Shown: positions 1,422 through 59,976 of the stretch, one piece after another
How the letters are laid out: the number at the start of each line of letters is the position of its first letter
How positions within the stretch are numbered: the first letter of the stretch is position 1
DNA from: a virus
Virus record (IMG/VR): IMGVR_UViG_3300031993_000069
DNA: 64,000 nucleotides
Direction: 5' to 3' (one strand)
The notes under the pieces: generated by a model
Told to the model about the DNA's origin: nothing
Databases searched by the model: none
The model's input: the letters and a program-made list of their open reading frames with translations, nothing else
Made by a program: the position numbers and the translations under genes

Positions 1422-3437
1422 ATGATGACAAGAAATCAATTCAATGCACTTAGTGCAACCACAATCCCATCCAACATTCATGTCAATGCACAAACTATTT
1501 TGATTGCAAGACATTATTTACTTGCGGCTCCAATTGCCCAAGAAGATGCTATTAAGACTGCATATTACAATGCTTATCTTTTTGCTAACTTCGGTATTGT
1601 TGTCGACAAGCCAAAGCTTTTAAGCGATATTAGCGTTAAGGAAATTGCTGATTTATTCAAGCTTAATGTTCCAGCTTCTTTCTACAAGAACCCACAAGAC
1701 ACTAAGTATTACACTCGCGGTGAACTTTTCGTTAACCAAGTTATCTCTTACTTCTTGGCTTACGGCGAGGAAAACTCTGCCATCGATTTATTCGGTGCTG
1801 ATAAGAAACTCCCAGAATATCCAGAAGGCGACGAAATCAAACTTCGTGAATTCAAGATTTTAACTGCTGACGAAGCTGATGTTGTTTTAGCAGATATTGC
1901 TAAGGCTTACTGTGACTACAAACGTCCATGGTCTTTAGATGAGACTTATGAATTTGTCTGGTTATATGACCACGGTTACTACAAGAACTTTGATGTTCTT
2001 TGCGGTGACAATGCTATTACTATGCTTGAAAAGGATACTAACTTTGCTCGCTTCTTATTTAAGAAAGACTTAGTTAAAATCTCTGTTTCTCGCTGCGGTG
2101 AAAAGTCTAAACTTGTTTTAGATACTGAAACTAGAGACCTTATCCGTAAGGCTATTCCTTTAGTTAAAGATTGCCCAATGACTAAAAAGCAAGCTAAGTA
2201 TTTCAATACTTTAATTGCTAAAGTTGGTGCAACCGGCAAGGTTAAAACTGCTTCTAATGCTAACTCTCCATATGCTAAGGCACAAGCTGCTTTAGATAGA
2301 GGCGATGTTTTAGGCGCAGCTAGAATCTATGCTGCCAACGGTTCTTTATTCGAAAGAAACATCAAGATGTTAATCTCTCGTGCTAATCCAGCAGAAGCAA
2401 TGGAAATCATCAAAATGATTCCAAATAAGAACCCAATCGCTCTTTACCAATTTGTTACTACTTTAATGGAAGACAATGGCGGAAATCGTACATTTACTTT
2501 CACCAAGAACAAATTAGTTAAAAAGCACGTCGAAACTGAGTATGAAGCTAAGTGGAGAAAATCCAGACTTAATGAGGCAACTCGTAAGATGGTCCATGAC
2601 GCTACATTCACTCAAATCGAGGCTGGTTATCGTTTACAACCTTCTTTAGGTAAGGTTTATGTCTCTGAAGACTTCTTCAAAGTTGGTGTCCCTGTCAACA
2701 CTTCTGCCTCTGGCAAAGGTATTGATGTCTTACCAGCTGGTTCTAGAATTCCAGTCAGAGGCAACAAAATCCGTACCTTCGTTCACTGGGAACATGCATT
2801 TGATATCGACTCTTCTTTAGTCATCATTGATGAAAAAGGCAATGTTGACGTTATGGGTTTCTTCAACTACATGCATAAAGCTTATTCTAATGATTTGCTT
2901 TTCTCTGGTGACGTTACAAGCCCAACTGGCACTGAATACTACGATATGGACTTAGATGGACTTCGTAGACATGGTGTCCGCTACATCATCCAAACCTTCC
3001 ATGGTTTCTGCTCTAACCTCAACAGCGGAGAAATCTACTGTGGTTATCAAGACAAGAAGAACCTTAACACTAAGGCTTGGGATCCAAAAAACATTGAATT
3101 AAAAATTCATGTTAAGGGTGATACTCGTGCCTTCATGTCATTCGGTGTCGACTTAGAAACCAATGAAGTCGTTATCTTCAATATGCTCTTAGACTCTGAA
3201 AGCCGTGTCGTCTCTGGCGACATGAAAGATACAGTAATGAAATACTTATCTTCTAGCTGCTTAGAGCTTAATATGGGCCTTGTTGCTACATATAGAGCAT
3301 CTGAAATTGTTGCAACTCCAGAAGAAGCAGATGTCGTCTTTGACGCTACCTATACTGCTCTTGAAGGCCAAAAGGTCGTTCGTCCTTACGAGGTCGAAAA
3401 GCTTGTTGGTTTAGCTTCTGGAGCTGAACTTAACTAA
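1422..3437 (+). CDS. large hypothetical protein (671 aa)
   Basis: Long uninterrupted ORF with RBS AAAGGAGG. No TGA codons. No recognisable motif. Confidence 0.7.
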   Translation: MMTRNQFNALSATTIPSNIHVNAQTILIARHYLLAAPIAQEDAIKTAYYNAYLFANFGIVVDKPKLLSDISVKEIADLFKLNVPASFYKNPQDTKYYTRGELFVNQVISYFLAYGEENSAIDLFGADKKLPEYPEGDEIKLREFKILTADEADVVLADIAKAYCDYKRPWSLDETYEFVWLYDHGYYKNFDVLCGDNAITMLEKDTNFARFLFKKDLVKISVSRCGEKSKLVLDTETRDLIRKAIPLVKDCPMTKKQAKYFNTLIAKVGATGKVKTASNANSPYAKAQAALDRGDVLGAARIYAANGSLFERNIKMLISRANPAEAMEIIKMIPNKNPIALYQFVTTLMEDNGGNRTFTFTKNKLVKKHVETEYEAKWRKSRLNEATRKMVHDATFTQIEAGYRLQPSLGKVYVSEDFFKVGVPVNTSASGKGIDVLPAGSRIPVRGNKIRTFVHWEHAFDIDSSLVIIDEKGNVDVMGFFNYMHKAYSNDLLFSGDVTSPTGTEYYDMDLDGLRRHGVRYIIQTFHGFCSNLNSGEIYCGYQDKKNLNTKAWDPKNIELKIHVKGDTRAFMSFGVDLETNEVVIFNMLLDSESRVVSGDMKDTVMKYLSSSCLELNMGLVATYRASEIVATPEEADVVFDATYTALEGQKVVRPYEVEKLVGLASGAELN

Positions 3438-5198: not shown

Positions 5199-5816
5199 AT
5201 GAAAACTTGAACAATATACTGTCATATTAACAAAATTAATGGTAAAAGATATATTGGCCAAACTAGCAGACAAAAATTAAATTTGAGATGAAAAAGTGGT
5301 TATGGATATACTTTAAAAGACCAAAAGATTTTTGCAGAGGCTATTAAAAAATATGGCTGAGAAAATTTTGATCATCAAGTTTTAGAATCTGGCATTAAAA
5401 CTTTAGAAGAAGCCAATAAAAGAGAAAAATATTGAATTTCTTATTATAATACTTGGGTTTATAGCCAAAATTGTAATGGATATAATATGACTGAAGGTGG
5501 TGATTCTGTTGTTTCTCATACAGCGTGAAATAAAGGAAAACCACAATCAGAAAAACAAAAGCTTGAACATAGCAAAAGAATGTCTGGCAGAAAATTATCT
5601 GAAGAGCATAAAAAAGCTATTAGTGCTGGTCTTCAAAGAAAAGAAAATACCCATAATAAAGCAGTTAAATGCATAGAATTAAATAAAGTTTATAGCTCAG
5701 CAGTAAAAGCATCTACTGAATTAAATATTTTAAGAACAAGTATTACTAATTGCCTGCATAAGCATTCAAATACAGCTGGTGGGTATCATTGAGAGTTCTT
5801 TAAGGAGGAAAACTAA
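5199..5816 (+). CDS. GIY-YIG homing endonuclease with NUMOD-like C-terminus; contains 6 in-frame TGA codons read as Trp
   Basis: Translation with TGA=W gives ...INGKRYIGQTS..., KYGWENF, YWISYYN, AWNKGK and a C-terminal GGYHW, which are hallmark GIY-YIG/NUMOD3 motifs. With standard code the frame breaks at every expected Trp. Confidence 0.75.
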
Positions 5817-5817
5817 A

Positions 5818-6459
5818 TTGTCTCTGGTTATAGCGATAAAAGATAAAGATAGAATTGTGCTTGGCGCTGATAAACAAACCAGCGTAAGTGATTTTAAAGA
5901 CCACTCTAGCACAAAGATTTGGCCTGTCGAAGAACTTCCTGGTGCTTTAATGGGAAGTGTCGGAACTTGTCGTGCATCACAAATTATTCAATATGCTAAT
6001 ATCATCGATAAAAATTTAATTAATGGAGACCTTTCAACAGACTTCATTATTTGTTCATTAGCTCCAACAATTGCTGCAGGCTTAAAAGCTCATGGCATTG
6101 TTGTAGAACCAGGCGAAAATGGCTCGTGTGATATGATGCCAAATTCATTTATATTTGCTTATAAAGACAAAGCTTGAATGATTTGGAATGATTTAAGTGT
6201 AACAGAGATTGGTGACTATTTAGCAATTGGCTCCGGAGCCGATGTTGCTAGAGGTGCTTTATTTGCTACAAAGAAAGAGAAAAATCCGTTTGAGCGTATC
6301 GTTACAAGTATTGATGCCGCTGCCGAGTCAACATTGTTTGTTGATGATGGAATTGATTTATTAGCTACAAAATCGCACAAGGATGATGCAGAGCTTGTTG
6401 CTGCTGCATTTGGTTATAATATTAAAAAGAAATCTGCTGATAATGGTAAGAAGAAGTAG
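5818..6459 (+). CDS. HslV/proteasome-like Ntn-hydrolase peptidase (TTG start; alternative ATG at 5779); one in-frame TGA at 6175
   Basis: SLVIAIKDKDRIVLGADKQTS resembles the HslV N-terminus TTIV..RRNG.VV.AGDGQ.T, and LAIGSGADVARGAL resembles the HslV IAIGSGGPYA motif. RBS AAGGAGG lies 9 nt upstream of the TTG. ORFs 5779..6177 and 6178..6459 are in the same frame, joined by a TGA. Confidence 0.6.
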
Positions 6460-8743: not shown

Positions 8744-8817
8744 AGGGGTATCGTCCAACGGTAGGACTACGGTCTCCAAAACCGTCTATCTGGGTTCGAA
8801 TCCTAGTACCCCTGCCA
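8744..8817 (+). tRNA. tRNA-Trp(CCA)
   Basis: Acceptor AGGGGTA/TACCCCT, anticodon loop CTCCAAA, G73, CCA. Confidence 0.85.
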
Positions 8818-8821
8818 ATGT

Positions 8822-8909
8822 AGAAGCTTGTGTGAGCGGTTGAAACAGTTGGTCTAGAAAACCAATATGCTGAAAGGCATCGAGGGTTCGAATCCCTCAG
8901 CTTCTGCCA
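8822..8909 (+). tRNA. class II tRNA-Ser with anticodon loop CTAGAAA (anticodon AGA, A34)
   Basis: Acceptor AGAAGCT/AGCTTCT, G73, long variable arm TATGCTGAAAGGCAT, anticodon stem TTGGT/ACCAA. Confidence 0.6.
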
Positions 8910-13125: not shown

Positions 13126-13200
13126 GGTCGTATAGCTCAACGGCAGAGCGGGCTCCTTATAAGGGCTAGGTTCCTGGTTCGAATCCAGGTGCGACCACCA
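13126..13200 (+). tRNA. tRNA-Ile(TAT) (AUA-decoding type)
   Basis: Acceptor GGTCGTA/TGCGACC, anticodon stem GGCTC/GGGCT (2 G·U) with loop CTTATAA, CCA. Confidence 0.55.
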
Positions 13201-14037: not shown

Positions 14038-14415
14038 GGGCTCGTACTGGTTTCGATTGGTATTTGATGCTTATGACTACAGCAAGCTGATAACTTACTA
14101 TCAAACAAAAACAAACGACAAAACAAACTTTATGGCACACCTTGCCAACAACCAAATGGTTGCTGCTCGCGCCTAGTTCGCGAGAATGGTGATTGAGCTA
14201 GATAAGGTCGAATTTAGTTCTCTATTAATCAGACCTCGATGTTTATATCTAAGTAACTCCATATAAATGTTTAAATAAAGAGTAGACAACTGCTAGTATC
14301 GGATCGAAGGACTTGAGGTTCGCCGATAAAAAGAATATTTCTCAGGTTAAAGCTGTAATTAACGTTGTGGGGGTTTGGTATCAAGACAGGAGTTCGATTC
14401 TCCTCGGGTCCACCA
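14038..14415 (+). ncRNA. ssrA: tmRNA (transfer-messenger RNA)
   Basis: The 5' end GGGCTCGTACTGGTTTCGATTGG resembles the canonical tmRNA 5' end GGGGCUGAUUCUGGAUUCGAC. The 3' end AGGAGTTCGATTCTCCTCGGGTCCACCA pairs with the 5' acceptor and has G3·U70 and A73 (Ala identity). Length 378 nt. The internal frame ...NNQMVAARA-TAG is a candidate tag ORF. Confidence 0.75.
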
Positions 14416-14419
14416 TAAT

Positions 14420-14506
14420 GGGCGAGTGGCGTAACTGGTAGCCGCAATGGTCTAAGAAGCCATTGACCGAAAGGTCGTAGGGGTTCAAGTCCCCTCTCGC
14501 CCACCA
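14420..14506 (+). tRNA. tRNA-Leu(AAG), class II, A34
   Basis: Acceptor GGGCGAG/CTCGCCC, anticodon stem ATGGT/GCCAT with loop CTAAGAA, long variable arm TGACCGAAAGGTC, A73, CCA. Confidence 0.6.
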
Positions 14507-14561
14507 GAGTTATCTTTAATAATATTGTATAATATATTAGATATTGAAAGGAATTTATCTT

Positions 14562-14894
14562 ATGTATAGTTTACAAGAATTAATTGAACATGGATATGTC
14601 GATAGTATTACAACTGATGGAACACATCTTGGTGATGGTTATACTATTGTTGTTAAACTAAGCAGATATTCTATTGGTAAGATTACAATTAATGTTGGTA
14701 TTGATGAATACTTAGATGATGCTGTTACGCTTATTAATGGTATTATTGATATTCAAGAAAGCTTAAATAAAGAAGCTAAACCGGAAGAAAAGCCAACTAT
14801 TAGACATGTAACTGATCCAGATGAAATAAAGGAAATACTTTCTGGAACAGCAATTAAAGACACAAAAATTGAACCAGAGGATTATGCGGAATAA
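14562..14894 (+). CDS. hypothetical protein (110 aa)
   Basis: ATG behind promoter TGTATAATAT (14525) and RBS GAAAGGAA. Confidence 0.55.
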   Translation: MYSLQELIEHGYVDSITTDGTHLGDGYTIVVKLSRYSIGKITINVGIDEYLDDAVTLINGIIDIQESLNKEAKPEEKPTIRHVTDPDEIKEILSGTAIKDTKIEPEDYAE

Positions 14895-15073
14895 TGTATC
14901 AAATTATTAAAGACGATAAATATTATCTATATAATGATATAGGCGAAGAATTAATGACAATTACCTTCGACAATTCATTACCAGGAGACCAAGTAGTTAT
15001 TACTACACAGGATGAAGTTTATGCTGGTCCAATAAAATTTGTTACTTTTTCTGGAGATATTCCAAAAGAGTAG
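14894..15073 (+). CDS. small hypothetical protein (59 aa)
   Basis: ATG overlaps the upstream stop (ATAATG). Coding-like composition. Confidence 0.35.
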   Translation: MYQIIKDDKYYLYNDIGEELMTITFDNSLPGDQVVITTQDEVYAGPIKFVTFSGDIPKE

Positions 15074-15089
15074 CTTGTATATTATTAAT

Positions 15090-15186
15090 AGGGGCTTAGT
15101 GTAACGGCAGCACAACGGTCTTCAAAACCGCAAAGCGGGGGCCTCCAAAACCCCAGGTGCGGGTTCGAATCCTGCAGCCCCTGCCA
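15090..15186 (+). tRNA. Trp-like opal-suppressor tRNA, anticodon TCA, with an unusual 25-nt extra arm
   Basis: Acceptor AGGGGCT/AGCCCCT, G73, CCA. The D-arm and anticodon stem ACGGT/ACCGC are nearly identical to tRNA-Trp(CCA) at 8744, but the loop is CTTCAAA. A 25-nt insertion AAAGCGGGGGCCTCCAAAACCCCAG between the anticodon and T arms forms a hairpin. Own promoter TTGTATATTATTAAT sits immediately upstream. Confidence 0.7.
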
Positions 15187-15252
15187 TATAGAGCCTGTAC
15201 TTATTTCTATCACAAACCTTGAAATTTGCACGCAGTAGTCAGGCCATTTATT

Positions 15253-15438
15253 TTTATGAAATTTAAGTATAGAATTATTTGGGTTAATACAGTTAAAGGA
15301 AAACAAGAATATGTTGATATCGATGACCAGCATATTGTATTGTTTGTCGCTAAGAAAAAAGTTAGCGATGGAATGCAAGGAGTCATCATTCAAGTTTCTG
15401 GTGATCCATCTATGACTGACCCAGATGATGCTAGCTGA
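15253..15438 (+). CDS. hypothetical protein (61 aa)
   Basis: ORF downstream of motif A. Confidence 0.3.
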   Translation, partial: FMKFKYRIIWVNTVKGKQEYVDIDDQHIVLFVAKKKVSDGMQGVIIQVSGDPSMTDPDDAS

Positions 15439-15504
15439 CCGGCTATTGATGCGAATGCTTCTGAAGCTGAAAATAAAATAATTTAAAAAAATTAAAAAAA
15501 ACTA

Positions 15505-15534
15505 TTTACAAAAAATAAAAAAGTATTGTATAAT
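15505..15534 (+). promoter_or_regulatory. sigma70-like promoter
   Basis: TTTACA-N16-TGTATAATAAT. Confidence 0.6.
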
Positions 15535-15539
15535 AATAT

Positions 15540-16180
15540 TGTGAGTGTTAAGCAAGCACTCCAAAAGTGTTCTTTGAAAAATTTTAATTGGCACCTCGAT
15601 GAAGACATCTTGCACGATGGTCGAGGCTCGGCTCTAAGATGATGATAACTGGTGGGATACTGCTGGGTAAGTTGAAACTTCCAAAGTGATGAAGAAGTAA
15701 ACCTATTTAATTAGGATTGAGTCGATGGCGCAATTTGTTGCAGCGATTTAGATGAAAACACATATGCGGGTCCGACAAGAAGCTCTGGCCGTAAGGTCAT
15801 CTCACCTGTGGTATTAAGCCTGAGAAACTTAATGCCCGGTAACTCAAAGGAAGGACGCGACTTGATGTCAAGAAATTGACTATAACTGGTAATGTGTTTG
15901 TACAAGTAGCCGTATGTCGTACTACAAAGCTTTAACAGGATATTTATTAAATACTTTGCTGAAGCTCGGTGAAAGTTGATAGGTAAAGGTCCTATCTGTG
16001 GAAGTCGTAAGACCATTGGAGAAGTTATAGGGTAGCTCCCTGTGACTCAGCCTCCCGTGAGCATCCATTAATAAAGTCAAGCAATAAGGGTTGTATGGTG
16101 AAGACCGGAAATTAAAATTTTTTAAAGAGCACTTAAAAGTATTGCTAAATTAAGTAGACTTAAAAAGTCAGAAGGAGAAA
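15540..16180 (+). ncRNA. unidentified ~640-nt ORF-free structured RNA candidate
   Basis: Lies between a strong promoter and a small ORF. GC-enriched relative to the genome, with no ORF above 60 aa on the + strand. No RNase P P4 motif (GGAAAGUCC) seen. Confidence 0.3.
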
Positions 16181-16184
16181 AAGC

Positions 16185-16274
16185 ATGTTAAACTTAGTTA
16201 CTGTTAACGTTAGACCTACAGCAACAGCCAAACCAGCGTTGGTAAGTTTTGATATGCTCATGACCTCTGATAGA
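16185..16274 (+). CDS. small peptide (29 aa) candidate
   Basis: RBS AAGGAGAAAAAGC then ATG; followed by a perfect terminator. Confidence 0.25.
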
Positions 16275-16506: not shown

Positions 16507-16590
16507 TAATTATATGGGCCGATAGTTTAATTGGGAAAATACCCGCCCTGCAAGCGGGAGTTAGGGGTTCAAATCCCCACGTGTCCACCA
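16507..16590 (+). pseudogene. tRNA-like element (Ala-TGC-like anticodon arm, T-arm and CCA) with a non-pairing acceptor stem
   Basis: CCCGC-CCTGCAA-GCGGG anticodon-like arm, GGGGTTCAAATCCCC T-arm and a 3' CCA. The 5' GGGCCGA does not pair with the 3' CGTGTCC. Confidence 0.3.
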
Positions 16591-26667: not shown

Positions 26668-26883
26668 AATTTAATTATCGTATAATATTTTAGAACTTCT
26701 ATGTAGGGCAATTTTATTCGCTAAATTAATGTGACGACGTAAGTTGTCATTACATAGAAAAGGGCACAACCACGGTAACGTGGCGTCGCAAAACTAAAGG
26801 GCCTTGGGAGAGGCAGCCAGTTGCTTCTGTGAAACCGTTATTCATGGAAGTTTTTTATTTATATGGACAAGGAGAACACACAC

Positions 26884-32892: not shown

Positions 32893-33759
32893 ATGTCACG
32901 ATTTTCAGGAAAATGTGATTTATTTGATCACATCTCAGGACGTGGCGGCTGATATGACAAAGACGGAAATCCCGTTAAGTTTGGTCAAGAAGGCGTTGGC
33001 GTCTATTATTCAGATGAAATGCAAGATTTTATTGCATTCAAAAAAGAAACTGGCGGGGTAATCCATCAACATAAAAAAGTCAAGGTTGATGAGTGGAATC
33101 AAGATGAAGTAGCTAAACATTGCAAGTTTTTTAAAGTTATTCCTCATGAAGAAATTATTAAAGATAAGCGCTATAATGGTGGGGAGAGAAAACAAACAAC
33201 TTATACCTATAGCTATTATGGTAAAGAATATACATTAAAAGAGCTTAATAAACATGGTGTTTGGGTAGAAATTGATATTCATTTTAATACAATTTTAGAC
33301 TTAATTCCTTATTATCCATACTTAGTTGCTTGTGCAGCTTATAGTGATGGAAAAGCTTATGTTGTTATTTCACAAGAAAGCTATGTTACAGAAGAAAGAG
33401 ATGAACATATTGAACATGGATATTTCAGTGAATTCTGGGAACATTATGCTAAGGAATTACAAGACCATTATAGAGAAATTGTCTTAACTTATTTCAATCC
33501 AGAAGGAAGAGAAAGAGTTAAAGAAATTACTTTTGATGAAAATGGATTAGGTTATGTAGGTGAGCCTATTGATTATAACTTTGATCCAGATTGGCGTTGG
33601 GAAGATGGAAAGCGCCATGACCATTGGACTTCCCCTAAATTAGTTGATGCTGAAAAAGGCTGTATCAAAATTAGTGAGGAAGACCAACGACACTATATTG
33701 GAAATAAAGCATTAGTCTATTATGTGACCACAAAAAATGCTAAATTATATTTGGGGTAG
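32893..33759 (+). CDS. hypothetical protein (~288 aa) with in-frame TGA at 32950
   Basis: ATG at 32893 with RBS AAGGAGAATTAT. Frame-continuous with track ORF 33019..33759 across one TGA (GRGGWYDKDG). Confidence 0.6.
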
Positions 33760-38472: not shown

Positions 38473-38486
38473 GAGGAAGCTAGAAC

Positions 38487-41400
38487 ATGGTACAATTTCC
38501 AAGTGGTTTAATAATTACATCTAAAGAGCCAATAGATTGCCGTTTAGCTTTAACAAATGCTGAGATGCTTGCAATCAGCCTTGCAATCAGAAATAATCGT
38601 TCAGGATCAGCGATTGAAGACATTAGCGATTATAACATGCCGGATAAATATCTTAGCATTAGCGAAGATGACGGCAGAGTTTATTATTTCTATTGTGAAG
38701 ACCCAAACATTGAGTCAAAGCATAATGACTGGCAAGAAGAAACCGGTTATTTTAAAGCTTCCGAATATAGATTAGATGAAGCTTTAGCAGCAGAAATTGC
38801 TAGAGCTATTGCTCGTGAAGATGATATTGATGAAAGAGCTTTACATAAAAAGTTCTGGGGACCAGCTAAAGTTGAGTCTGTCGAGGGCAAAAAGATTTGG
38901 TTTGGTGAACAAGAATATCGTAATAACTTAGTCTTAACTGGAACAGACATCACCGGCGTTAGAAAATTAAAAACAGATTGGGCTTATATTGAAGAAGCCT
39001 TTATTGATAAAGAAAAGACTGGAACTGCAGACATTTTAACTGCAAATGTTGAAACTGCTAATATTGAAACAGCAAATATCGTTACTGAAAACGTTCAAAC
39101 TGAAAACATCGATACTATCAATGCTTTACATGCAAATATCGAAGATGCTAATATTGGCACAGCAAAAGTTGATACTGCCAACATTGAAAACGGCAATATT
39201 GAAAATGAAACAGTCAAAGTTTCTGGTATTGTAACTGCAAATATCAATAAAGCAAATGTTGATACCGCAGATATTTTACATGCTCACATTGGTGATGAAA
39301 CTGTTACAAGTGCAAATATTAATGATGCAGATATCGCAACATTAGATGTTACTATAAAAGCTGAAATTAAAGAAGCTTCTATTGAAACTGTCGCTATTGA
39401 TGAAGAAACAGTAACTACTTCAAATATTGATAGTGCAAAAATTAGAACTGAAGAAGTTGGTACTTCTAATATTACAACTGCAAATATCAATCATACTCTT
39501 ACTGATTTATTAGATGCTGATGATGCTAATATTGATACATTAGATGTAAATGTCAAAGCCAATATTAATGATGAGTCAGTTGGAACCTCTGATATTGGAA
39601 CAGCAGGAATTGGAACTGCAAACATCGGAACAGCTAACATTGGCATTAAAGCAAATATCAATGAAGCGGCTATTGGAACGGCTGGTATTGGTGATGCTGA
39701 TATTGCTACTTTAGATGTCACAACAAGCGCAAATATTAAATCAGCTTCTGTTGAAACTGCAACAATTGATGCTGAAACAGTCACAACTTCTGATATAACC
39801 ACAGCAAATATTGGCACTGCTAATGTTGGAACATTAAATGTCGGAACAAAGGCAAATATCAATGATGAGGCTGTCGGCACTTCTACAATTGGAACATTAC
39901 ACGTTACTGAAACTGCTGAAGTTGACGGAAACATCACTACACATTCAGATTTATATGTAGAAGCTCAAAAGACTGCTGCTAATACAGAAAATGCACTTAA
40001 GATTAATTCTTCTGGAAAAGTCGAAAAAGTTGATTTAACAACTGCTTCCCCAACCAAGAATGGTAAGACTTTAGAATATATCGATAGTGTTTCACAAGAC
40101 AGCATTGGTAAGATTTCTGCTACAAAGAAAGAAATCACATTAACTGATGGCGGTCAAGGAACACTTACATTAAATGACAGTGATATTACTATCACAAATT
40201 TAACAACTTCTGGAAAACCAACATTCACAGGAGTTACACTTTCTAGTGCTCCATTAGCAGATACAGATGCTACAACAAAGAAATATGTAGATGATGCTGA
40301 TAGTGATTTACAATCTCAAATCGATACTATTGAGTCAAGAACAGATGTCATTGACGTTGTTGCTTGCTATGACTATAATAACTACGAAGAACCAAAACCA
40401 ACTTCTGATATCGTCCACTATGATACTTCAAGCGGAAAGATTTCAGACAAAGACGTTGTTAAGGTCTTAATTGATGAAACTCACAATGATGCTGTTTCTT
40501 ATTATAGATATTCTACAAGCACAAGCTCATTCAGCTATGTAGGTACTGTTGAAGCTTATTATACTAAAGCTGAAACAGATGGCTTTGTTTCTGGTTTACA
40601 AGCTCAAATTGATGAAGATATCGAAGTTGTTCCTTATCAAACAACTACTGCTTTAACAGATAGCCAAATGGCAAAAGCTTATGCTGGCAAATTGGCAGTT
40701 TATTTTAGTAATCATTTATTTATTTTAACAAATATTAAAACTGACAAACTTATTTTTAGCTATTTTGAATATTCTGGTGAGGATCGTACAACACCATTTC
40801 CAGTAAGTAAAAAATTATTAACATATGAGATTCGTTTAGACAGGGCAACAAAGATGTTCTCAGGTCATGGCGGATCAGAAGAGAATATCATTTCTGCCTA
40901 TGATAATTCTATTGCAAATAACTTAATTCCAGATGCTGCTGGAAAGCAAATCATCCGTGCTCTTAACTTAAGAAAAACACAAGATATGATTGCAAATGTT
41001 TATGATGCAACTGCAACATATGCTTATGGTGATTATTGTATTTATCAAAATGATTTCTATAAATGCACGACTGCAATTACTTCAGCAGAAGCTTGGAATT
41101 CTAGTCATTGGACAAAGATGACTTTGGCTGATGCTAGTAATGAAGATGATATTGAAATTATTGATTATCAATCCAATACTCCATTAACAGATGCTCAAGT
41201 AAAAAAGGCTAAAGAAGGTAAGTTAGTAGTTAAAGGTAATTGAGGCTATGGATTAACTTATTATGCAAAAGCCTTTAGACAAGACAATAATTATATTTAT
41301 TTTTTAGGCAATCAAAAAGAAAGTACAATATTTAACCCAGATAGTCCAACTAGACCTCCTGTAATGGCTGGCATTTTTATGCCTTATTGTACACTATCCT

Positions 41401-42671
41401 TATCTACAAAAATGTTAGGAAATCCTAGCACTCAAGAATTAGACACGATATCTCTTGATAGTAGAAATTATATGTCCCTTGGAACAACACCAGAGTTAAC
41501 AAAAGGTAGAGTTGTTCTTGAAAGTAATTTACGTCGCTTAAGAGATATGCTCGCAGCTGAATATAGCTCATCAGCAACTTACTCTGTCGGAGATTATGTA
41601 ATTTATCAAAATGAATTATATAGATGTTCTACAGCTATTACAACTGCTGAAACTTGGACTGCAGCACACTGGACTAAGACAAGTTTAAGTAATGAAGTTG
41701 AAACTGAAAAAATTCAAGTAGTTACCCTTAGCAGCAGCGGTACTGGTACATTTTCAGATAGTGACTATGCTAAAGTATTAAGAAATAATTGTCTTTTAAA
41801 AGATGTCGATGGTATTTATTACCATAAATTCTATGAGACCGATAGCTTTATATCGTATATTCAAATACATGGAATTTCAACTAGTAGTATAAACTTTAAA
41901 ACTTATTCTATTACAAAAAGTTCAAAAACATATACAAATGGAACAACTCTTAATATAAGATCTATTAATATTAATGAAAGTTTAAGTGGAAACGAAGTAG
42001 AAACTAAAGAGTTAACAGTTGAGTCTAATAAATACAAAGTCCTTAATTCAGAACAATTCTATCCAGCTTATAATTCAACATACACATATTCAATTGGTGA
42101 TATTGTTTCCTATAAGGGAAAATTCTATATTTGTATTTCTGCTATTTCTACGGCAGAAGCTTGGACGGCTGCTCACTGGGCTGAGACAAATCCTGGAACA
42201 CAAATAGTTGAATTAGCTAGTGGTAGTGGTACATTTTCTGATATAGAGTTTGCAAAAGTTAATAGTCTTGATTGCGTTATTAGTTTTAGCAAAAGATTAT
42301 ATTACAGAGTAAATAATAATGCTTTGCCTGATAATATTGATTATCGAGTAATACATACTTCTGTAATGAACGGCGATCTTACTTTTGATACTATTCGTAT
42401 CACTAAATCTACAAAATCTTATGTTAGAAGCGATATGTCAGCTGGTGTTTCAAGAGTTGCGGCTAACCAAACACTTGCAGGCACTGAAGCAGAACTTACA
42501 AGCTTAACTGTAGGACAAACTAAATATAAAGTTCCAACTCAAGCTCAATCTTTAGCTTATTTAACAACAGCTCCAACGGCAGACAATACAGATGGAGTTA
42601 AATTAGTTGTATTAAGCCAAGAGCCAGCAACAAGATACGAAGGTTATCTATATATAATCACGGAGGAATAA
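38487..42671 (+). CDS. giant tail-fibre protein (~1394 aa) spanning track ORFs 38487..41243 and 41364..42671 via in-frame TGA (Trp) at 41241
   Basis: The two ORFs are in the same frame with no other stop between them. N-terminal part carries about 45 short T-A-N-I repeats. Three copies of a ~40-aa motif Y.(V/I)GD.V.Y...(Y/F)Y.C..AI(T/S).AE.W...HW(T/A).T. Confidence 0.6.
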
Positions 42672-42675
42672 CACA

Positions 42676-42921
42676 ATGCCTTTATTCCCAGGATTAAAAA
42701 ACGTTGACCATATATATTTCGGCGGCAAGAATGTCGTTAAGATTTACTTTGGTCAAAAAGTAGTATATGAAGAAGGAGTCTTGTACTCTTCAGACAATAA
42801 GGCATTGGCAGACACAAATGGCTTAATTTTAGAGCCATCAACCGAAACAAACTTCACATTGGCAGACGGAAAGACAATGTATACTGCCGATGGATTAATA
42901 TTCAGTGCATTAGAGAATTAA
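42676..42921 (+). CDS. hypothetical protein (81 aa)
   Basis: ORF. Confidence 0.45.
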   Translation: MPLFPGLKNVDHIYFGGKNVVKIYFGQKVVYEEGVLYSSDNKALADTNGLILEPSTETNFTLADGKTMYTADGLIFSALEN

Positions 42922-42932
42922 GGAGATAAATT

Positions 42933-44024
42933 ATGGCAAAATATCAACTTACACAAACAGCCGAAGCTATTCAAAGGGATTTAGATTTAACAGAAGCCCT
43001 TGGTTTAGAATATGACGGCACAGTAATGTATTATGGCGGCGATATTGTAAGAAAAGACAATAAATTTTATCAATGCAATAGCGCTACTACATATGGCCCA
43101 ACAGCCACATTCGATACGACATATTGGGATGTAGTCAGCTTAAACGAAGTAAAAGAATGGCTAATCAAAAGAATTGGCTGGGCAATTACAGACCACGATT
43201 ATAATTCTACTTATTCTTATAGCGCTGGAGACACGGTTTGTTTCAAAGGATACTTATATGTCGCCAATACTGATATTGCGGCTCCTGCTGGCACATTTGA
43301 TTATACAAAATGGACAAAGACTTCTGTTGAAGAGCTCATTTGGGCAAAACAAGATACATTAGTTTCAGGAACCAATATCAAAACAGTTCACGGTAACTCT
43401 ATTTTAGGAAGTGGCGATATTGATGTCGTCGGTCCAATTGGCCCTACTGGAGCTACAGGACCTCAAGGGCCTACTGGAAAGACCGGGGCAACTGGACCAA
43501 CTGGACCGCAAGGACCTACAGGAAAGACTGGTCCTCAAGGTCCTACTGGTAAGACAGGGACAGGTAATCAAGGGCCTACTGGAAAAACAGGTCCGCAAGG
43601 CCCAACCGGAAAGACTGGTGGAACTGGTCCAACTGGCGCAAGTGGTGATCCATCAAGTTTTTATTGGGCAAATATTCAAATTCAAACCCAATCATCAACT
43701 TCTAAATCACCAACATTCAATGAATGTACTGCGACTAAATTCTATGCAACATCAGATAGCCGTTTAAAAGAGAATATCAAACCATTTGATAGTGAAAAAT
43801 CAATTTTAGACTTACCGATTTATGAATTCGATTTCAAGTCTAGCGGTAAACACGCAATTGGCTGTTTAGCTCAGGATTTGCAAGGAATTTGCCCAGAAAT
43901 CGTTTATGAAAATGAAGAAGGCTATTTAGCTATCGAAGAGTCTAAATTAGCATATTTATTAATCTTAGAAATGAGAAAAGAGATTTCAGCATTAAAAGAA
44001 GAAATCAAAGAATTAAAGAAGTAG
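42933..44024 (+). CDS. collagen-like tail fibre with C-terminal peptidase-S74 intramolecular-chaperone domain
   Basis: Two copies of the Y..GD.V.....Y.....T motif, a conserved junction [20 protein letters not shown], and about 20 G-P-T-G-x-T triplets. C-terminus [13 protein letters not shown]...LPIYEF matches the S74 chaperone start SDxRLKENI. Confidence 0.7.
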
Positions 44025-44038
44025 AAAGGAGTTAATCT

Positions 44039-45325
44039 ATGGCAGGCGCAAGATATTTTTATGGCACTGGTTCATCAGATTATATAGGCGAGCAAGCTGC
44101 AAAAGTTGCAAGCAGCAGTGACTATACGACTCCTTTAAGCAATACAGTAATTAATAGCTATTTTTCTGATACTAGTGCTAATTATTCATATATAACCCCA
44201 AGAGAAGACGCTGGTAATACTTATGGTTTATGGGGAAACTATGACTACTATAAAATAGCTGCAAATAAATTTTATACAAAAACTAATAATGTAGAGACAG
44301 TCTTAAAGTTTGTTGATAGAAGGTCTGCACCGCTTTTATCTAAAGCAACTAGAGATACAAACTGGGGCCGTTGTCAAGCACCCTTTAGTTATTATGCTTT
44401 TGCTCATAATTTTGCGGGTTATACTGCAAAACTTTATTGGGATAGCACAAATAATAGAATTCAAGTAAATGTTTATAGCGATGATAATTATTCATCATTA
44501 AATACATCCTTTACCATCAATGCTTATGGCGTATTCATCATGATTGCCGGCGGCGGTGGCGGTGGAGGGGGCGGAGACGCCCAGTACTGAGGCCAAGGAA
44601 GTCCCGGCGGCGGTGGCGGCGGAGGCGGTGGAACTGCCCTCGTCTATCTTGATCTTAGATGATTAAATAATTACAGTTCTGGTTGTTATGCCAGAATTAA
44701 GGTTGGAACTGGCGGTTCAGGGGGCTCTGGCGGGGCTGGATTCCAATCAGGTAGTGATGGAACTTCTACCGATATAGATATTTGTAGCTCTTCTGGTACT
44801 TCTATGTATTATATTACTGCTTATCCTGGTAAAGGCGGAGCAGGACATGCTTGGGACGTAGCTGCTGATTCAGCTGGCGGCAAGGGTGGAACAGTAGACT
44901 GAGGACATCAACAAAGTCAATGGGCATCAATGTCAACAGGAATTAAAGTATTAAGTTCTGCTACTGGCGGAAAAGGTGGAGATGGCTGTCGTGGTAGCAG
45001 TGGTTATTCTGGCAGTTATATTTCTTCAGGAAGCTGAGGATTGCCATTCTCAAATTCTTGGGGTAAAACAGATACATTTACATACGGTAGCTCTACTTGC
45101 TATATGGGCGGTGGAGGCTCAAACAATAACCAAGGTGGAGGAGGTGGAGGTTGCGGAGCTGGCTATAAAGACTCGCAATATCCAACTGCCACATCAGGTT
45201 GCGGAATGGGCGGACGCGGTGGTGGTGAAAGCCAAGCCGGATTATCTGGCGGAAGTGGTTTCTGTGGAATATTTTATGGATATGTTGCAGGAATTGATTC
45301 TGGCTGCGATCCAAAAACTGTTTAA
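44039..45325 (+). CDS. glycine-rich fibre/structural protein (~428 aa) containing 4 in-frame TGA (Trp) codons
   Basis: Track ORFs 44039..44590 and 45041..45325 are in the same frame. Gly runs (GGGGGGGGG) and TGAs at ~44588, 44659, 44899 and 45036 sit in Gly/Ser-rich context. Confidence 0.55.
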
Positions 45326-45345
45326 TAATGAGGAGATAAAAACTT

Positions 45346-46383
45346 ATGGGAAAATACACAAGTAAATACACAGGACAACAAATAGATGATAAACTTGATG
45401 CTATTAGTAATATTCCAGTTGGTGCATTAAAAACTGCTAATGATGATTTAGCTATTGGTTATAATTCTACAACAAATTCAACGGTTGGAAGCCATAATAC
45501 TGCTTATGGAACTAATGCAGATGCTAGAGGTGATGATAGTGTTAGCATTGGAATGGACTCAAAAGCTACTGGAAAACATAGTGTAGCTCTTGGAAGATTT
45601 GCTTATGCTACTGCAGATTATGCTGTTGCTGTTGGTCGTGGAGCACAGGCCGTATATAATTATACTACTGCCATTGGCTATGGTGCGGTGGCTAATAATG
45701 GATATGACTTGGCAATTGGCTATAATGCTCGTGCTTCTAAAGCACAGTCTATGGCTATTGGGAGCGGCGCTGAAGCTAAGCAAGATTATAGTACAGCTTT
45801 AGGTCGTAATGCTTCTGTAGATGGCGTAGGGTCTATTGCGATTGGCCGTAATTCAGCTATTGGTAGTAATTGTAGTTATGCAATATCAATTGGAACACAA
45901 ACTAAAACATATGTTTCAAATTGAATTAATTTTGATGGAGAATCAAATGACTATATTCGTACATTGTCTCTTTACGACCTAACTAAAATCTTTTTTAGAA
46001 ATGAAAATATAGATTCAAATAAAACTACACAAGCGGCCTATACTAATGGTAAAACATTACAAAATTATTTAGATGAAAAAATCACAGTATTAGCAACAGG
46101 TGCATTTACTACTTATACAGCAAAATCAATTGCAACATTAATCTCAGAAGGATATAATTATGTAAGACTTACTGGTTATCGTTCTGATGCTGATAAACAC
46201 CAAAGAAGCTGGTTAGTTAGCTTAGCAACTTTAAATGCTGGAACAACAGTTGAAATTCAAGAAGCAATTAGCGGTTGGACTACTGCTGCTTATATTTATA
46301 TCTTTAATAGTAATGGAAATATAGCTTGAGATGGCGGTGGTGGAATTACTGTCACAGTTAATTTAATTGAAGGCATTAAATAA
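45346..46383 (+). CDS. repeat-containing fibre protein (~345 aa) with 2 in-frame TGAs
   Basis: Track ORFs 45346..45924 and 45964..46329 are in the same frame. Repeats of AIG..A.A/SIG; TGAs at 45922 and 46327. Confidence 0.55.
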
Positions 46384-46406
46384 TAATTAAATTTAATAGA
46401 TATATT

Positions 46407-46438
46407 AGCAGATTTTAAGAGAATCTGCTTTTATTTTT
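46407..46438 (+). terminator. rho-independent terminator
   Basis: AGCAGATTTTAAGAGAATCTGCTTTTATTTTT. Confidence 0.8.
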
Positions 46439-46479
46439 GCTAAATTATATGATTAGTCCAAAGATAAGGAGATATAGAT

Positions 46480-49400: not shown

Positions 49401-49818
49401 AGGCCCAACAGGTGCTACTGGCCCTACAGGACCACAAGGCTTAATTGGTCCTACTGGTCCATCAGTTAGCTCTGCTGTAACCTTATATGATGGCGATGGT
49501 ATGACAAATGAAATGGCTGTCAGTGGCGTAACTCCAGCCGCTCTTACTTTCACAAATTTAAAGAATTATGGATTAATTGTCATGCTAGGCTATAAGAATG
49601 GTCACAGCAATGGTAATGGTATTATTATATTTTCTCCTGCTGCTCTTGATGCTTGGGGAAATTACACAGTTGCTTTAGGTGCTGATAACTGGCAATATAA
49701 TCTTAAATTATGGAAACCAGGTGAAGGCTCTGAAAAGATAACTTGGGCAACACAATCAGATTATGGCAGTAGCTATGAATTTACTGTTCATAAAGTTTAT
49801 GGAATTGGGAGAGTATAA
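46480..49818 (+). CDS. collagen-like tail-fibre protein (~1112 aa) spanning track ORFs 46480..49197 and 49366..49818 via in-frame TGA at 49195
   Basis: Junction motif [25 protein letters not shown] followed by hundreds of G-P-T-G/G-x-x-G triplets in several blocks. Upstream motif TTTTTGCTAAATTATATGATTAG. Confidence 0.7.
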
Positions 49819-58650: not shown

Positions 58651-59976
58651 GTGACTGAAATGGCAGAAAAAGTATTAAATGATAAATCAGCCAATGAGAA
58701 AGTCTATGATATCTTTAATATGCCATATGTTAAAGAAAATCCTAGAGTTAACCCAACAGCCAAAAAAATTCTAAATGATGAATTTACGTTGACTGATATT
58801 AGAAAAATATATAAAGAAGCTAAAGAAAAACTTTATGAAGAAACTACCTCGGACCTCTTAGATGATTATGTCTATTGGGGTCCAAGTAGAAGTCATTCTG
58901 AAGATTGAGGCTATGATAGCTCTGATATGGTCGGCGGAATGGGCTATAATATCTTTACCATTAAAGATGTTGCGTTTACAGACCAAGGCTATGGAATGAG
59001 TGGCGACCTCAAACGTACTGATAAGTTTGATATCTCATTAGAGCTTGCTTTATGGGGCTTATACAATAGTCGCTATGATGAAGATGAGGCTAGCGAATTC
59101 TTAGACCAAATGGAGAGTGACTCTGAAATTGCTTTTGAAGATATTCAAGAAGAGCTCAATGAAATTTGGGAAAAAGAAGAAAATGAAAGACAGACCAGAG
59201 ATGCTGAGAGTAAAAAAGTTTATGGCGTTAAAGGCCAAGTTACTATAAACATTAGCGTTGATGCTCCAAGCAGTAATCATTCAAATCATAAGGCAGAATT
59301 AAAATATGATTATGATGTTGTCGCTGATGTTGACTTGCCTTTCCAACCAGGAACGCCTATAGTAAGCAAGATTGTTCCAGTTGACTTTAATTTAACTGAT
59401 ATTAAAGATCCAAATGATTTTGATAAGGCACTTGGTAGAGAGCTTTCAAAAGGCTTAGAAAGCATAGCTGATTTAGAAATGGATAAGATTTATAATTCAA
59501 ATCCATTTAAGGTTAGCTTTGATTTCATTCCATATAATAAACAAAAACCAGCTTCAATGAAATATATCTTATATCAATCACCAAAAAACAATAAATATTA
59601 TATTACTTCAAAAGGCATTGGTATTGAAAATTTAAGATTATTCTGGGATTCTAAAAGCTTAAATTATAAATCAATGACTATATCAAAGACAGCTTCTTCT
59701 GGACACAGATATACCGTAGATGCGGTTAAAGATATTGCATTAAACCGCAGTAATTGCAATCAAAACTATCTTGCATTAGATGATGAAGACGCTTATAATA
59801 AATTCATTGTTCCTAATAATAAGATGAATATTGCTGTTAAGCTTGGCTTACGATTATTATTCTTAGTCGATTATCATGTTGATTTAGAAATTACTGAAGG
59901 CAGCAATAAAACTAAAAAAGTTGATGATTACTCAGGAAGCCAAAAAATTAAGGAATTTCCTGCGAAATTGATATAG
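58651..59976 (+). CDS. hypothetical structural protein (~441 aa) spanning track ORFs 58651..58908 and 58927..59976 via TGA at 58906
   Basis: Same frame with a single TGA in between (SHSEDWGYDSSD). Confidence 0.55.

Follow-up and report, generated by a model that had tools for sequence, protein, structure and literature searches.

The window analysed here is a 64,000-nt stretch of viral DNA (IMG/VR record IMGVR_UViG_3300031993_000069). It carries a 97-nt tRNA gene with an encoded CCA end at positions 15090–15186 (+), identified by ARAGORN, by the Rfam model RF00005, by folding and by covariation in relatives. ARAGORN called a tRNA at exactly 15090–15186 (+), labelled it tRNA-SeC and placed a TCA anticodon at tRNA position 33. 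The RF00005 covariance model matched positions 15090–15183 with a score of 54.4 bits (E = 1.9e-11; gathering score, 29); model positions 1–71 were all matched, the variable region taking up 24 inserted nucleotides, and the resulting fold was a valid cloverleaf with the UCA loop at the anticodon position. The minimum-energy fold of 15090–15186 was likewise a cloverleaf with an extra hairpin, in a 7/5 helix arrangement. The UCA anticodon that the original prediction had placed in the canonical arm was thus recovered both by ARAGORN and in the RF00005 alignment. The same phage also encodes an ordinary, 74-nt tRNA-Trp(CCA) at 8744–8817 (+), and in many related contigs a tRNA-Trp(CCA) gene lies within ≈500 nt of the UCA tRNA.

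The acceptor stem (AGGGGCT/AGCCCCT) is followed, as read from the sequence, by the discriminator base G73 (15183, +), a bacterial Trp identity element (PMC9976931), and the encoded CCA. The D arm (GTGT-AACGGCA-GCAC) has a 4-bp stem and a 7-nt loop, and its stem is joined through a single nucleotide, 26, to the canonical anticodon arm, here denoted arm 1 (ACGGT-CTTCAAA-ACCGC; 15115–15131, +), which was located by its anticodon-arm position in the RF00005 alignment and has an A·C mismatch at pair 27:43. The UCA anticodon itself (15122–15124, +; ARAGORN and sequence) is predicted to read UGA, and UGG too by wobble. A purine-rich 5′ linker (AAAGCG; 15132–15137, +), 4–6 nt long in most of the 58 unique sequences described below, leads into the additional hairpin, termed arm 2 or the “pseudo-anticodon” arm (GGGGC-CTCCAAA-ACCCC; 15138–15154, +), which consists of four G–C pairs, a C·A closing mismatch and a 7-nt loop. 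As had been pointed out originally, this loop, CUCCAAA, is the tRNA-Trp anticodon loop; the CCA triplet at 15145–15147 (+), read from the sequence, is a copy of the Trp anticodon. Arm 2 is followed by a 3′ linker (AGGT; 15155–15158, +), which is as long as a class-I variable loop and includes a U able to form the Levitt pair with A15, and by the T arm (GCGGG-TTCGAAT-CCTGC; 15159–15175, +), placed by the RF00005 alignment and by covariation. The 3′ linker is conserved as RGGU in the close family (26-sequence alignment). The extra arm of the window tRNA spans 24–27 nt and makes the molecule anatomically class II, in that the anticodon and T arms are separated by a helix of 3 bp or more (4–5 bp here).

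The UCA tRNA had been described as near-identical to the tRNA-Trp at 8744. In a hand alignment, the identity outside the insertion was ≈74%, so that the two genes are related, but not near-identical. A dedicated promoter had also been proposed; however, a sigma-70 consensus scan called nothing directly upstream of the gene. The AT-rich 5′ flank is generic, with T at −3, A at −2 and T at −1 in 59%, 64% and 75%, respectively, of 1426 other tRNAs. Because such a T-A-T flank is common to the tRNA genes of these phages, it was rejected as specific promoter evidence.

The fold energy of the window tRNA, taken as a single sequence, was no better than that of shuffled sequences (z = −0.13), and single-sequence thermodynamics was therefore left unused as evidence. 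The support for both hairpins being real structures is comparative, not thermodynamic. In an alignment of 26 related tRNAs, which takes in tRNAs found without requiring the U33–A36 loop motif, 98% of the cells were paired and 17 of the 26 pairs changed on both sides. None of 500 shuffles matched this covariation, and sliding the pairing partners by 1–3 columns caused the paired fraction to drop to 37–50%. Four of five pairs covary in the stem of arm 1, as do four of five in that of arm 2, and U33, C34, C35 and A36 of the arm-2 loop are invariant across the alignment. An alternative pairing of the 3′ strand of arm 1 with the 5′ strand of arm 2 or with the T stem occurs in some sequences, and was rejected as unconserved by eye in the alignment; we consider it a by-product of the likeness between the two stems.

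The tRNA had been proposed as the decoder of in-frame TGA codons. Such TGAs exist in genes of the window, and at both sites open to comparison the homologues have Trp. At the first (6175–6177, +), in a proteasome/HslV-like gene (5779–6459), the corresponding column has W in 120 of 120 homologues, and the PF00227 domain runs on across the TGA. At the second (32950–32952, +), in a conserved gene of 288 aa, W is found in 103 of 112 aligned homologues, the others having F, Y, L or T. Because of the Trp at these two conserved sites, we conclude that TGA is read as Trp in this phage. There are about 10 more candidate in-frame TGAs, and the protein is coding-like across each of them. They cluster at 38–50 kb (41241, 44588, 44660, 44900, 45035, 45922, 46327 and 49195), in a probable structural-gene block (38484–49818, +) where ORFs merge on TGA read-through; the homology-checked sites, 6175 and 32950, are both found elsewhere in the window. 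(A further candidate is found at 58906; the homologue search there gave just two proteins, each with its gene call downstream of the TGA.) The stops of the long ORFs were TAA (30) and TAG (6), and TGA was not seen as a terminator among them. The UCA tRNA is a plausible decoder of these codons, a role that is well supported. In a study of phage UCA tRNAs in E. coli extract, Trp was inserted in 13 of the 13 cases analysed, many other tRNAs being inactive (PMC12636597).

The identity set of bacterial tRNA-Trp, as listed for B. subtilis, includes G73 and acceptor determinants (PMC9976931). The acceptor end of the window tRNA agrees with this set at A1–U72, G2–C71, G3–C70, G4–C69, G5–C68 and G73, bearing out its description as Trp-like. 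The set also calls for C34, C35 and A36; the canonical arm has U34, C35 and A36 at these positions, and C-C-A occurs solely in the loop of arm 2. A1 is present in 42 of the 58 two-armed UCA tRNAs and in 30 of 51 tRNA-Trp(CCA), compared to 132 of 1426 other tRNAs. The assignment of 15090–15186 as a putative Trp-type opal-suppressor tRNA is thus a supported one. A phage-encoded TrpRS was also considered and was rejected: a crude six-frame search of the window, which is a partial genome, and of all fetched loci found no HIGH-like and KMSKS class-I synthetase motifs.

The tRNA-SeC label given by ARAGORN would suit a selenocysteine- or serine-accepting opal suppressor, in which the long arm and G73 recruit SerRS. 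These two features are the SerRS determinants (PMC7609411); G73 is common to the window tRNA, tRNA-Ser and tRNA-Sec, and some family members have tRNA-Ser-like bodies. However, the acceptor/T helices are 7/5 and the D stem has 4 bp, where tRNA-Sec has 8/5 and a D stem of 6 bp closed by a 4-nt loop, the general tRNA model beats the tRNA-Sec model in Rfam clan competition, and true tRNA-Sec genes from the same scans lack the CCA-loop motif. Homologues show W at the TGA sites, never S, C or U. Furthermore, SerRS does not read the loop sequence of the arm (PMC7609411), so that the conservation of this loop would stay unexplained. We consider a Sec or Ser acceptor highly improbable.

Two scans of IMG/VR, one requiring the UCA loop and a long body alone and the other requiring the D arm alone, both recovered the CCA loop in the extra arm. 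There are 58 distinct UCA tRNAs with an N-U-C-C-A-A-A loop in the extra hairpin, on several unrelated backbones. Within this set, for which TCCA in the extra arm was a selection criterion, A37 is found in 56 and A38 in 49 of the 58 unique tRNAs, G73 in 53 of 58, and the arm-2 stems have 4–7 bp in most. TCCA was present in the extra arm of 58 of 69 long-arm, non-Sec (7/5-type) UCA tRNAs. The frequencies in control variable arms were 1/101 for Ser, 1/77 for Leu, 0/40 for Tyr and 0/8 for Sec-like tRNAs, or 2/226 when pooled (2/218 for Ser, Leu and Tyr alone). In the backbones denoted L026, L038 and L105, the CCA loop caps a class-II arm of 7 bp flanked by 1-nt linkers, and the tRNAs of the L026 type are ≈75% identical to the tRNA-Ser of T4-like phages.

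Among cultured phages, a megablast search of INPHARED with window positions 14400–16200 gave no match, and a sensitive blastn search with the tRNA returned nothing but ordinary tRNA-Trp genes, which aligned with the 3′ half of the tRNA, arm 2 included. Two other family members also had no full-length match among cultured phages. Because these phage-genome searches gave no full-length match, there is no named, cultured example of this tRNA, with its annotation, to which we can refer. A family member (L303) is carried by Bacteroides neonati MS4, beside a terminase-like gene (NZ_HG726020.1).

Three origins had been suggested for the extra arm in the original prediction: a long variable arm, a relic of anticodon-arm duplication, or an intron. 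The first agrees with the anatomy, and the arm shares its long helical form with the variable arms of Ser, Leu and bacterial Tyr tRNAs and of tRNA-Sec, but it misses the conserved mimicry of an anticodon loop that is common to many phages. The arms of Ser, Leu, Tyr and Sec tRNAs have loops of 3–6 nt without conserved sequence and linkers of 1–2 nt, whereas the window's family has an anticodon-like 7-nt loop with UCCAA, a 5′ linker of 4–6 nt and a 3′ linker of 3–4 nt. The relic and the intron are both disfavoured, because the loop is invariant, the stem covaries over deep divergence, and the same loop is found on unrelated backbones, including tRNA-Ser-like ones.

A non-functional relic would have arisen by tandem duplication of the anticodon arm, after which one copy changed from CCA to UCA and the old copy was left without a role. 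Such an origin accounts for the likeness of the two hairpins in the close family (GGU...ACC beside the loop), for anticodons one base apart and for the ordinary tRNA-Trp(CCA) gene that usually adjoins. A relic would, however, be expected to decay or be lost, while here UCCA(A)A is kept in the loop and four of the five stem pairs covary over 26 divergent sequences; nor is the tRNA-Ser-like class-II arm that bears the same loop a duplicate of an anticodon arm. A relic is very unlikely. If one hairpin were excised, whether as a small intron or in processing, an ordinary tRNA of 72–75 nt would be left, and a canonical tRNA sequence does remain after deletion of either hairpin with its linker. Against this, the 25-nt segment has no group I intron features, there was no Rfam ribozyme or intron match above threshold, and the anticodon-loop character of both loops is conserved. 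To our knowledge, bacteria are without a bulge–helix–bulge splicing system, and we regard such removal as extremely unlikely.

Similar arms were found on tRNAs with other anticodons. When CUA (amber) suppressors were scanned for without regard to the extra arm, 17 of 20 had [CT]TGA in this arm, and several of them showed a full CUCUGAC or CUCUGAA loop, that is, a mimic of the Gln anticodon. The remaining three have Leu/Ser-type class-II bodies with ordinary tetraloop arms; the synthetases of such bodies ignore the anticodon. Among long-arm tRNA-Ile(UAU), 21 of 23 had [AT]GAU loops, mimicking GAU. The decoding and mimic anticodons are thus paired in parallel: UCA with CCA, CUA with the Gln anticodon, and UAU with GAU.

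A conserved loop on a covarying stem shows that something reads the loop sequence, and the reader need not be a synthetase. A phage protein, an enzyme that modifies anticodon loops, a T-box leader or a host anticodon nuclease for which the arm is a decoy would each be a candidate. The A36-A37-A38 of the loop is the known recognition motif of MiaA, and many further RNAs related to translation are encoded in the window. However, a reader of this kind leaves unexplained why the anticodon mimicked is in every case cognate to the amino acid to be inserted (Trp, Gln or Ile) and why the mimic is absent from Leu/Ser-type suppressor bodies, and an unsystematic look at the surrounding genes noticed no conserved neighbouring protein gene. 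We consider a reader other than a synthetase to be quite unlikely.

The explanation that we favour, with somewhat better than even confidence, is a two-armed tRNA in which arm 1 decodes UGA and arm 2 offers the Trp anticodon to the host synthetase. Arm 1, in the anticodon-arm position of every tRNA, carries UCA and would decode on the ribosome. Arm 2, in the variable region, reproduces the anticodon stem-loop of tRNA-Trp (N-U-C-C-A-A-A) in conserved form and would show TrpRS the C34-C35-A36 determinants that the decoding arm lost when C34 became U. The Trp-type acceptor end (A1–U72, G2–G5 and G73) would act together with arm 2, and with the CCA of arm 2 and this acceptor end in place, we infer that the host TrpRS should still be able to charge the tRNA with Trp. 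The W residues that homologues show at the two in-frame TGAs are indirect evidence for such charging. The extra arm would in this way separate the information read by the synthetase from that read by the ribosome. As judged from its sequence and from the TCCA counts given above, the CCA at 15145–15147 may be the TrpRS recognition element; TrpRS would then contact arm 2, and the charging enzyme would presumably be that of the host. Two routes would bring arm 2 to the anticodon-binding domain: it could act there as a true variable arm, or it could exchange places with arm 1.

The latter route amounts to a variant of the same explanation with another geometry, a two-headed tRNA whose hairpins take turns at the anticodon position. 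Stacking of arm 2 beneath the D stem would make it an ordinary tRNA-Trp(CCA) for TrpRS, and it might perhaps read UGG as well; with arm 1 stacked there, it would read UGA. An exchange of this kind would more easily suit a synthetase that is a monomer and has a single anticodon-binding domain. The 3′ linker of 3–4 nt (RGGU) in the window's family has the class-I variable-loop length, arm 2 and all the sequence 3′ of it align with ordinary phage tRNA-Trp genes, and the 5′ linker of 4–6 unpaired purines could serve as a hinge. However, the class-II arm that carries the CCA loop in L026, L038 and L105 has 7 bp and linkers of 1 nt, and it cannot move into the anticodon position. Arm 1 is always one nucleotide from the D stem, as in all tRNAs, and no tRNA is known to us in which positions 26 and 27 are separated by a 22-nt bulge. 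An exchange of the two arms is in our view unlikely.

Several observations stand against a pseudo-anticodon arm read by the synthetase. Class-II variable arms point away from the anticodon, and GlnRS and IleRS are monomers with one anticodon-binding domain. The decoding and mimic anticodons differ by one base (UCA/CCA, CUA/CUG and UAU/GAU), which is equally predicted by duplication followed by point mutation. The Ile-type loop has A at position 33, not U, so that its mimicry is imperfect. In the window tRNA itself, arm 2 has just four G–C pairs plus the C·A mismatch, and the fold is no better than shuffles.

Taken together with the Gln and Ile cases, the two-armed tRNA may be one form of a modular phage device, in which the extra hairpin shows CCA to TrpRS, CUG or UUG to GlnRS and GAU to IleRS, while the true anticodons are UCA, CUA and UAU. 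We consider the arguments for and against this generalization to be evenly balanced. The same holds for its corollaries, that the device had several origins on unrelated bodies, that the hairpin represents a tRNA identity element of a new class, and that it would allow a phage in a host with the standard code to capture or reassign codons without a synthetase of its own.

The phage resembles the TGA-recoded (code 4) phages of gut and rumen in having a UCA tRNA, a low-GC genome and TGA read as Trp (10.1101/2021.08.26.457843; PMC12636597). As in those phages, a tRNA-Trp(CCA) is encoded too, and the host synthetase is presumed to charge the UCA tRNA. Unlike the code 4 phage tRNAs as described in the accessible parts of these reports (Borges et al.; Seki et al., PMC12636597), the tRNA described here has an extra arm that mimics an anticodon loop. 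Borges et al. detected suppressor tRNAs in only 35% of TGA-recoded genomes and suspected non-canonical structures (10.1101/2021.08.26.457843).

The closest parallel is an engineered one. A pseudo-anticodon placed in the V-arm can boost aminoacylation, and the allo-tRNAs of Mukai 2020 use the same principle, with a hairpin at the V-arm's tip that copies the cognate anticodon stem-loop to recruit the anticodon-binding domain of a synthetase, and a real anticodon that is a suppressor (PMC7590224). That system is synthetic, with a 9/3 chassis and a HisRS carrying an extra fused anticodon-binding domain, and its effect was modest (PMC7590224). The phage arm, in contrast, is natural, belongs to 7/5 tRNAs, has been conserved across many phages, and would need to function with an unmodified host enzyme. 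The thrS operator and the TYMV-type viral tRNA-like structures also contain a hairpin copy of the cognate anticodon loop that is read by a synthetase, located in mRNAs or at viral genome ends, where it replaces the anticodon arm (PMC9976931). The phage mimic is instead added to a working tRNA that keeps another functional anticodon. In the literature searched, with subscription journals lying outside the search, this engineered analogue (Mukai 2020) was the only one found, and no natural tRNA with an anticodon-mimic arm.

Recoded phages present a long-standing puzzle, in that their suppressor tRNAs have to be charged by host synthetases for which the anticodon is the chief identity mark; a built-in copy of the cognate loop would answer it. 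If this explanation is true, decoding and charging are physically separable on one natural tRNA, as engineers have attempted (PMC7590224), and these tRNAs would be ready-made parts for genetic code expansion. There are also consequences for annotation, since these genes are labelled as selenocysteine tRNAs or “undetermined”; if the device is general, many tRNA-SeC labels in phages would be wrong. Such mislabelling may contribute to suppressor tRNAs having been found in only about one-third of TGA-recoded phage genomes (10.1101/2021.08.26.457843). The loop of the extra arm would, finally, provide a simple sequence signature for predicting the amino acid assigned to a recoded codon.

The window, which belongs to a large phage genome, has a low GC content (37%) and encodes 36 tRNAs, one tmRNA and one ROOL RNA. 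ARAGORN called its UCA tRNA (the focal tRNA) at exactly 15090–15186 on the plus strand, as a 97-nt gene with anticodon TCA and the label tRNA-SeC, and found no second UCA tRNA in the whole window. The general Rfam tRNA model covered the gene end to end with 54.4 bits, outscoring an overlapping related clan member, and treated 24 nt of the variable region as inserted. The acceptor stem (AGGGGCU/AGCCCCU, then G73 and an encoded CCA) and D arm (GUGU-AACGGCA-GCAC, then A26) are followed by a hairpin at the canonical anticodon position (arm 1; ACGGU-CUUCAAA-ACCGC, UCA at 15122–15124), a linker AAAGCG, a second hairpin in the variable region (arm 2; GGGGC-CUCCAAA-ACCCC, CCA at 15145–15147), a linker AGGU and the T arm (GCGGG-UUCGAAU-CCUGC). 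ARAGORN, the Rfam model and direct reading thus agree with the original prediction of a 97-nt tRNA with a UCA anticodon loop and an extra hairpin bearing the Trp loop. The "near-identity" to tRNA-Trp(CCA) at 8744–8817 was overstated, since a hand alignment gave about 74% identity outside the insertion. The minimum-energy fold was no better than that of shuffled sequence (z = −0.13), so folding energy is no proof of the hairpins.

The acceptor end has the elements that identify bacterial tRNA-Trp (A1-U72, G2-C71, G3-C70, G4-C69, G5-C68 and G73; PMC9976931). With 7 + 5 acceptor/T pairs and a D stem of 4 bp (loop 7 nt), the molecule is not a tRNA-Sec: bacterial tRNA-Sec has an 8 + 5 arrangement and a 6-bp D stem, both of which the focal tRNA lacks. 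True tRNA-Sec genes in our scans of viral contigs and bacterial genomes had no anticodon-like loop in the extra arm.

A dedicated promoter had been proposed directly upstream of the tRNA, but a consensus scan found no sigma-70-type site there, and the AT-rich flank is generic. The T-A-T preference at −3 to −1 also holds among 1426 other tRNA genes from these phages (59% T, 64% A and 75% T, respectively) and is a general leader signal, not a suppressor-specific one. A flank ending in U(−1) fits what we take to be a general pre-tRNA leader preference, perhaps that of RNase P. The nearest strong sigma-70-like site, the best in the region (TTTACA-18-TATAAT, 15505–15534, 11/12), precedes a full-length ROOL RNA at 15571–16127(+) (Rfam RF03087, 213 bits), 385 nt downstream of the focal tRNA.

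The tRNA array also contains a phage-encoded tmRNA (14038–14415(+)) with the tag peptide DKTNFMAHLANNQMVAARA; tmRNAs of related contigs have different tags (ANKVKSLF...). An unusual set of wobble-A tRNAs, Ser(AGA), Arg(ACG), Leu(AAG), Ala(AGC) and Thr(AGU), starts at 8822, 12962, 14420, 16596 and 18504, and related loci add Ser(ACU), Asn(AUU) and Phe(AAA); to our knowledge, A34 in bacteria is normally confined to Arg(ACG). Directly upstream of tRNA-Ala(AGC), a weak Rfam tRNA match (16516–16587(+), 40.6 bits, no ARAGORN call) with a poorly paired acceptor stem and the anticodon loop CCUGCAA could represent an unusual tRNA or a degenerate one. Elsewhere, the window holds a Band_7/flotillin-like protein (PF01145, 19686–21257(+)) with many metagenomic homologues, and a c-di-GMP-I riboswitch aptamer (26753–26828(+), 52.4 bits) immediately upstream of an ORF that runs to 27537 and whose product has a hydrophobic, signal-like N-terminus.

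Several plus-strand ORFs fuse when TGA is taken as sense. The in-frame TGAs of the original prediction were borne out at the two sites that could be compared with many homologues: position 6175, within a proteasome/HslV-like Ntn hydrolase gene (PF00227, 5779–6459(+)) with many metagenomic homologues, corresponds to Trp in 120/120, and position 32950, within a conserved 288-aa gene, to Trp in 103 of the 112 homologues that aligned (the others have F, Y, L or T). Long plus-strand ORFs end in TAA (30) or TAG (6) and contain about 18 in-frame TGAs, some perhaps upstream of true starts, versus 172 TGG; TGA is therefore a minority Trp codon in this phage and was not seen as a terminator. Most of the other candidate in-frame TGAs fall in a probable structural block, where a Gly-rich protein (44036–45325(+)) has four and a collagen-like protein with GPTGP repeats (46468–49818(+), about 1117 aa) has one.

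IMG/VR was scanned in three ways: by demanding both loops, which biased the result (22 loci); by demanding only a UCA loop and a long body; and by demanding only a long body plus the D arm of the focal family, which left the scan blind to both loops. The third scan found UCCA in the extra hairpin of 18/18 UCA tRNAs. Over all scans there were 58 distinct UCA tRNAs, a set selected for TCCA in the extra arm, in which the extra loop reads N32-U33-C34-C35-A36-A37-A38 (A37 in 56/58, A38 in 49/58), the stem is mostly 4–7 bp and G73 is present in 53/58. Among controls from the same loci, TCCA occurred in the variable region of 1/101 tRNA-Ser, 1/77 tRNA-Leu and 0/40 tRNA-Tyr, and of 0/8 Sec-like versus 58/69 7/5-type UCA tRNAs; ordinary class-II arms have loops of mostly 3–6 nt. 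When 26 close relatives were aligned, four of five pairs covaried in each hairpin, with 98% of cells paired and 17 pairs changed on both sides; none of 500 shuffles paired as well, and sliding the partners left 37–50% paired. The U-C-C-A of the extra loop was invariant, several members having been found without demanding these letters. The extra arm is conserved, and the loop it carries is that of the tRNA-Trp anticodon arm.

The CCA loop is carried by more than one family: some members share the focal D arm, and in others both the D arm and the acceptor stem are quite unlike it. One type (that of locus L026; L-numbers denote fetched loci with tRNAs, mostly viral contigs) shares about 75% identity with the tRNA-Ser of T4-like phages; its CCA loop sits on a class-II arm of 7 bp whose linkers are 1 nt long. 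Such unrelated backbones argue for repeated acquisition of the loop and, with the conservation pattern, against a decaying relic of anticodon-arm duplication, as had been suggested. UCA tRNAs at L041, L073 and L116 (acceptor GCCCCAG, U73, extra loops AACCA or AUCCA) seem to be a class of their own, perhaps Cys-like in view of U73. Two tRNA-like groups (L122, L132, L142, L151 and L153; L123, L126, L135, L143, L157 and L160) have the focal D arm (TAGTGTAAYGGYAGCACA) and T arm around long, conserved middle sections unlike any anticodon arm (GGAAGTCCGAGAC...; AAGGATGAATGAAGTTGCCTTGAAATA...).

The D-arm scan also yielded two CUA amber suppressors with the extra loop UUCUGAG and six tRNA-Ile(UAU) with N-A-G-A-U-N-N. 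When long-bodied CUA tRNAs were sought with no condition on the extra arm, 20 distinct ones were recovered, 17 with CUGA or UUGA (a Gln anticodon plus A37) in that arm, several as a perfect 7-nt loop CUCUGAC or CUCUGAA. The Gln loop occurs at L131, L145, L186, L217, L257, L259, L271, L282 and other viral contigs. The three of the 20 whose class-II bodies are of Leu/Ser type (L234, L250 and L262) had plain tetraloop arms; the synthetases for such bodies do not read the anticodon. Among 23 long-arm tRNA-Ile(UAU), bystanders in the fetched loci, 21 had (A/U)GAU, containing the major Ile anticodon, in the extra loop, with position 33 of the mimic usually A, not U (L130, L134, L138, L142, L147, L151, L153, L159, L163, the L174 family, L185, L200, L223, L238 and L281). 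The window's own tRNA-Ile(UAU) (13126–13200) has no extra arm. A table of decoding anticodon against extra-arm motif was strongly diagonal. UAU tRNAs at L121 (4900) and L124 (6616) carry CUGACAA or CUCACAA, with Val-type GAC and CAC in place of GAU; should the mimic determine the amino acid, these two would decode AUA as Val. Each decoding anticodon is one base from its mimic, a relation that a duplicated arm with a later mutation would be expected to show as well. That the arm is kept for a function is argued only by its pattern of conservation and by the unrelated backbones.

In the simplest reading, arm 1, whose junction with the D stem is always one nucleotide, as in every tRNA, decodes, and arm 2 would serve charging by giving the synthetase the anticodon determinants absent from arm 1, in the Trp case the lost C34 (PMC9976931); the contact between TrpRS and arm 2, and its geometry, are what we infer. 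Neither the window nor the surroundings of any family member showed a synthetase-like ORF, which makes the host enzyme the likely reader of arm 2. Phage UCA tRNAs insert Trp in E. coli extract, many others being inactive there (PMC12636597), and a pseudo-anticodon engineered into a V-arm is able to increase aminoacylation (PMC7590224); both results fit a division between decoding and charging. For the geometry of the focal family an arm-swap is conceivable, because its 3′ linker RGGU has the length of a class-I variable loop and the stretch from arm 2 to the 3′ end can be aligned with ordinary tRNA-Trp genes, whereas the class-II-type carriers with 1-nt linkers favour presentation as a true variable arm.

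Carrier contigs are mostly viral and 40–180 kb long, and many of them encode a tmRNA and a large array of tRNAs. A bacterial scan with one genome per species found this tRNA type in gut and rumen MAGs of Bacteroides, Clostridia, Oscillospiraceae, Bacilli and Coriobacteriia. A member with the loop GUCCAAA lies in the isolate Bacteroides neonati MS4 (L303, NZ_HG726020.1, locus 2950–3043, minus strand), next to two ORFs, one terminase-like and containing an in-frame TGA, the other transposase-like; this isolate could serve as a laboratory system for the two-arm tRNA. Suppressor tRNAs of recoded phages are known, but variable arms that mimic an anticodon loop are known only from engineering, whereas here they occur in natural phage tRNAs. 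We found no natural example in the literature searched, which covered few subscription journals, and an earlier description may exist. The pseudo-anticodon arm offers a concrete, testable answer to how suppressors are charged in recoding phages.
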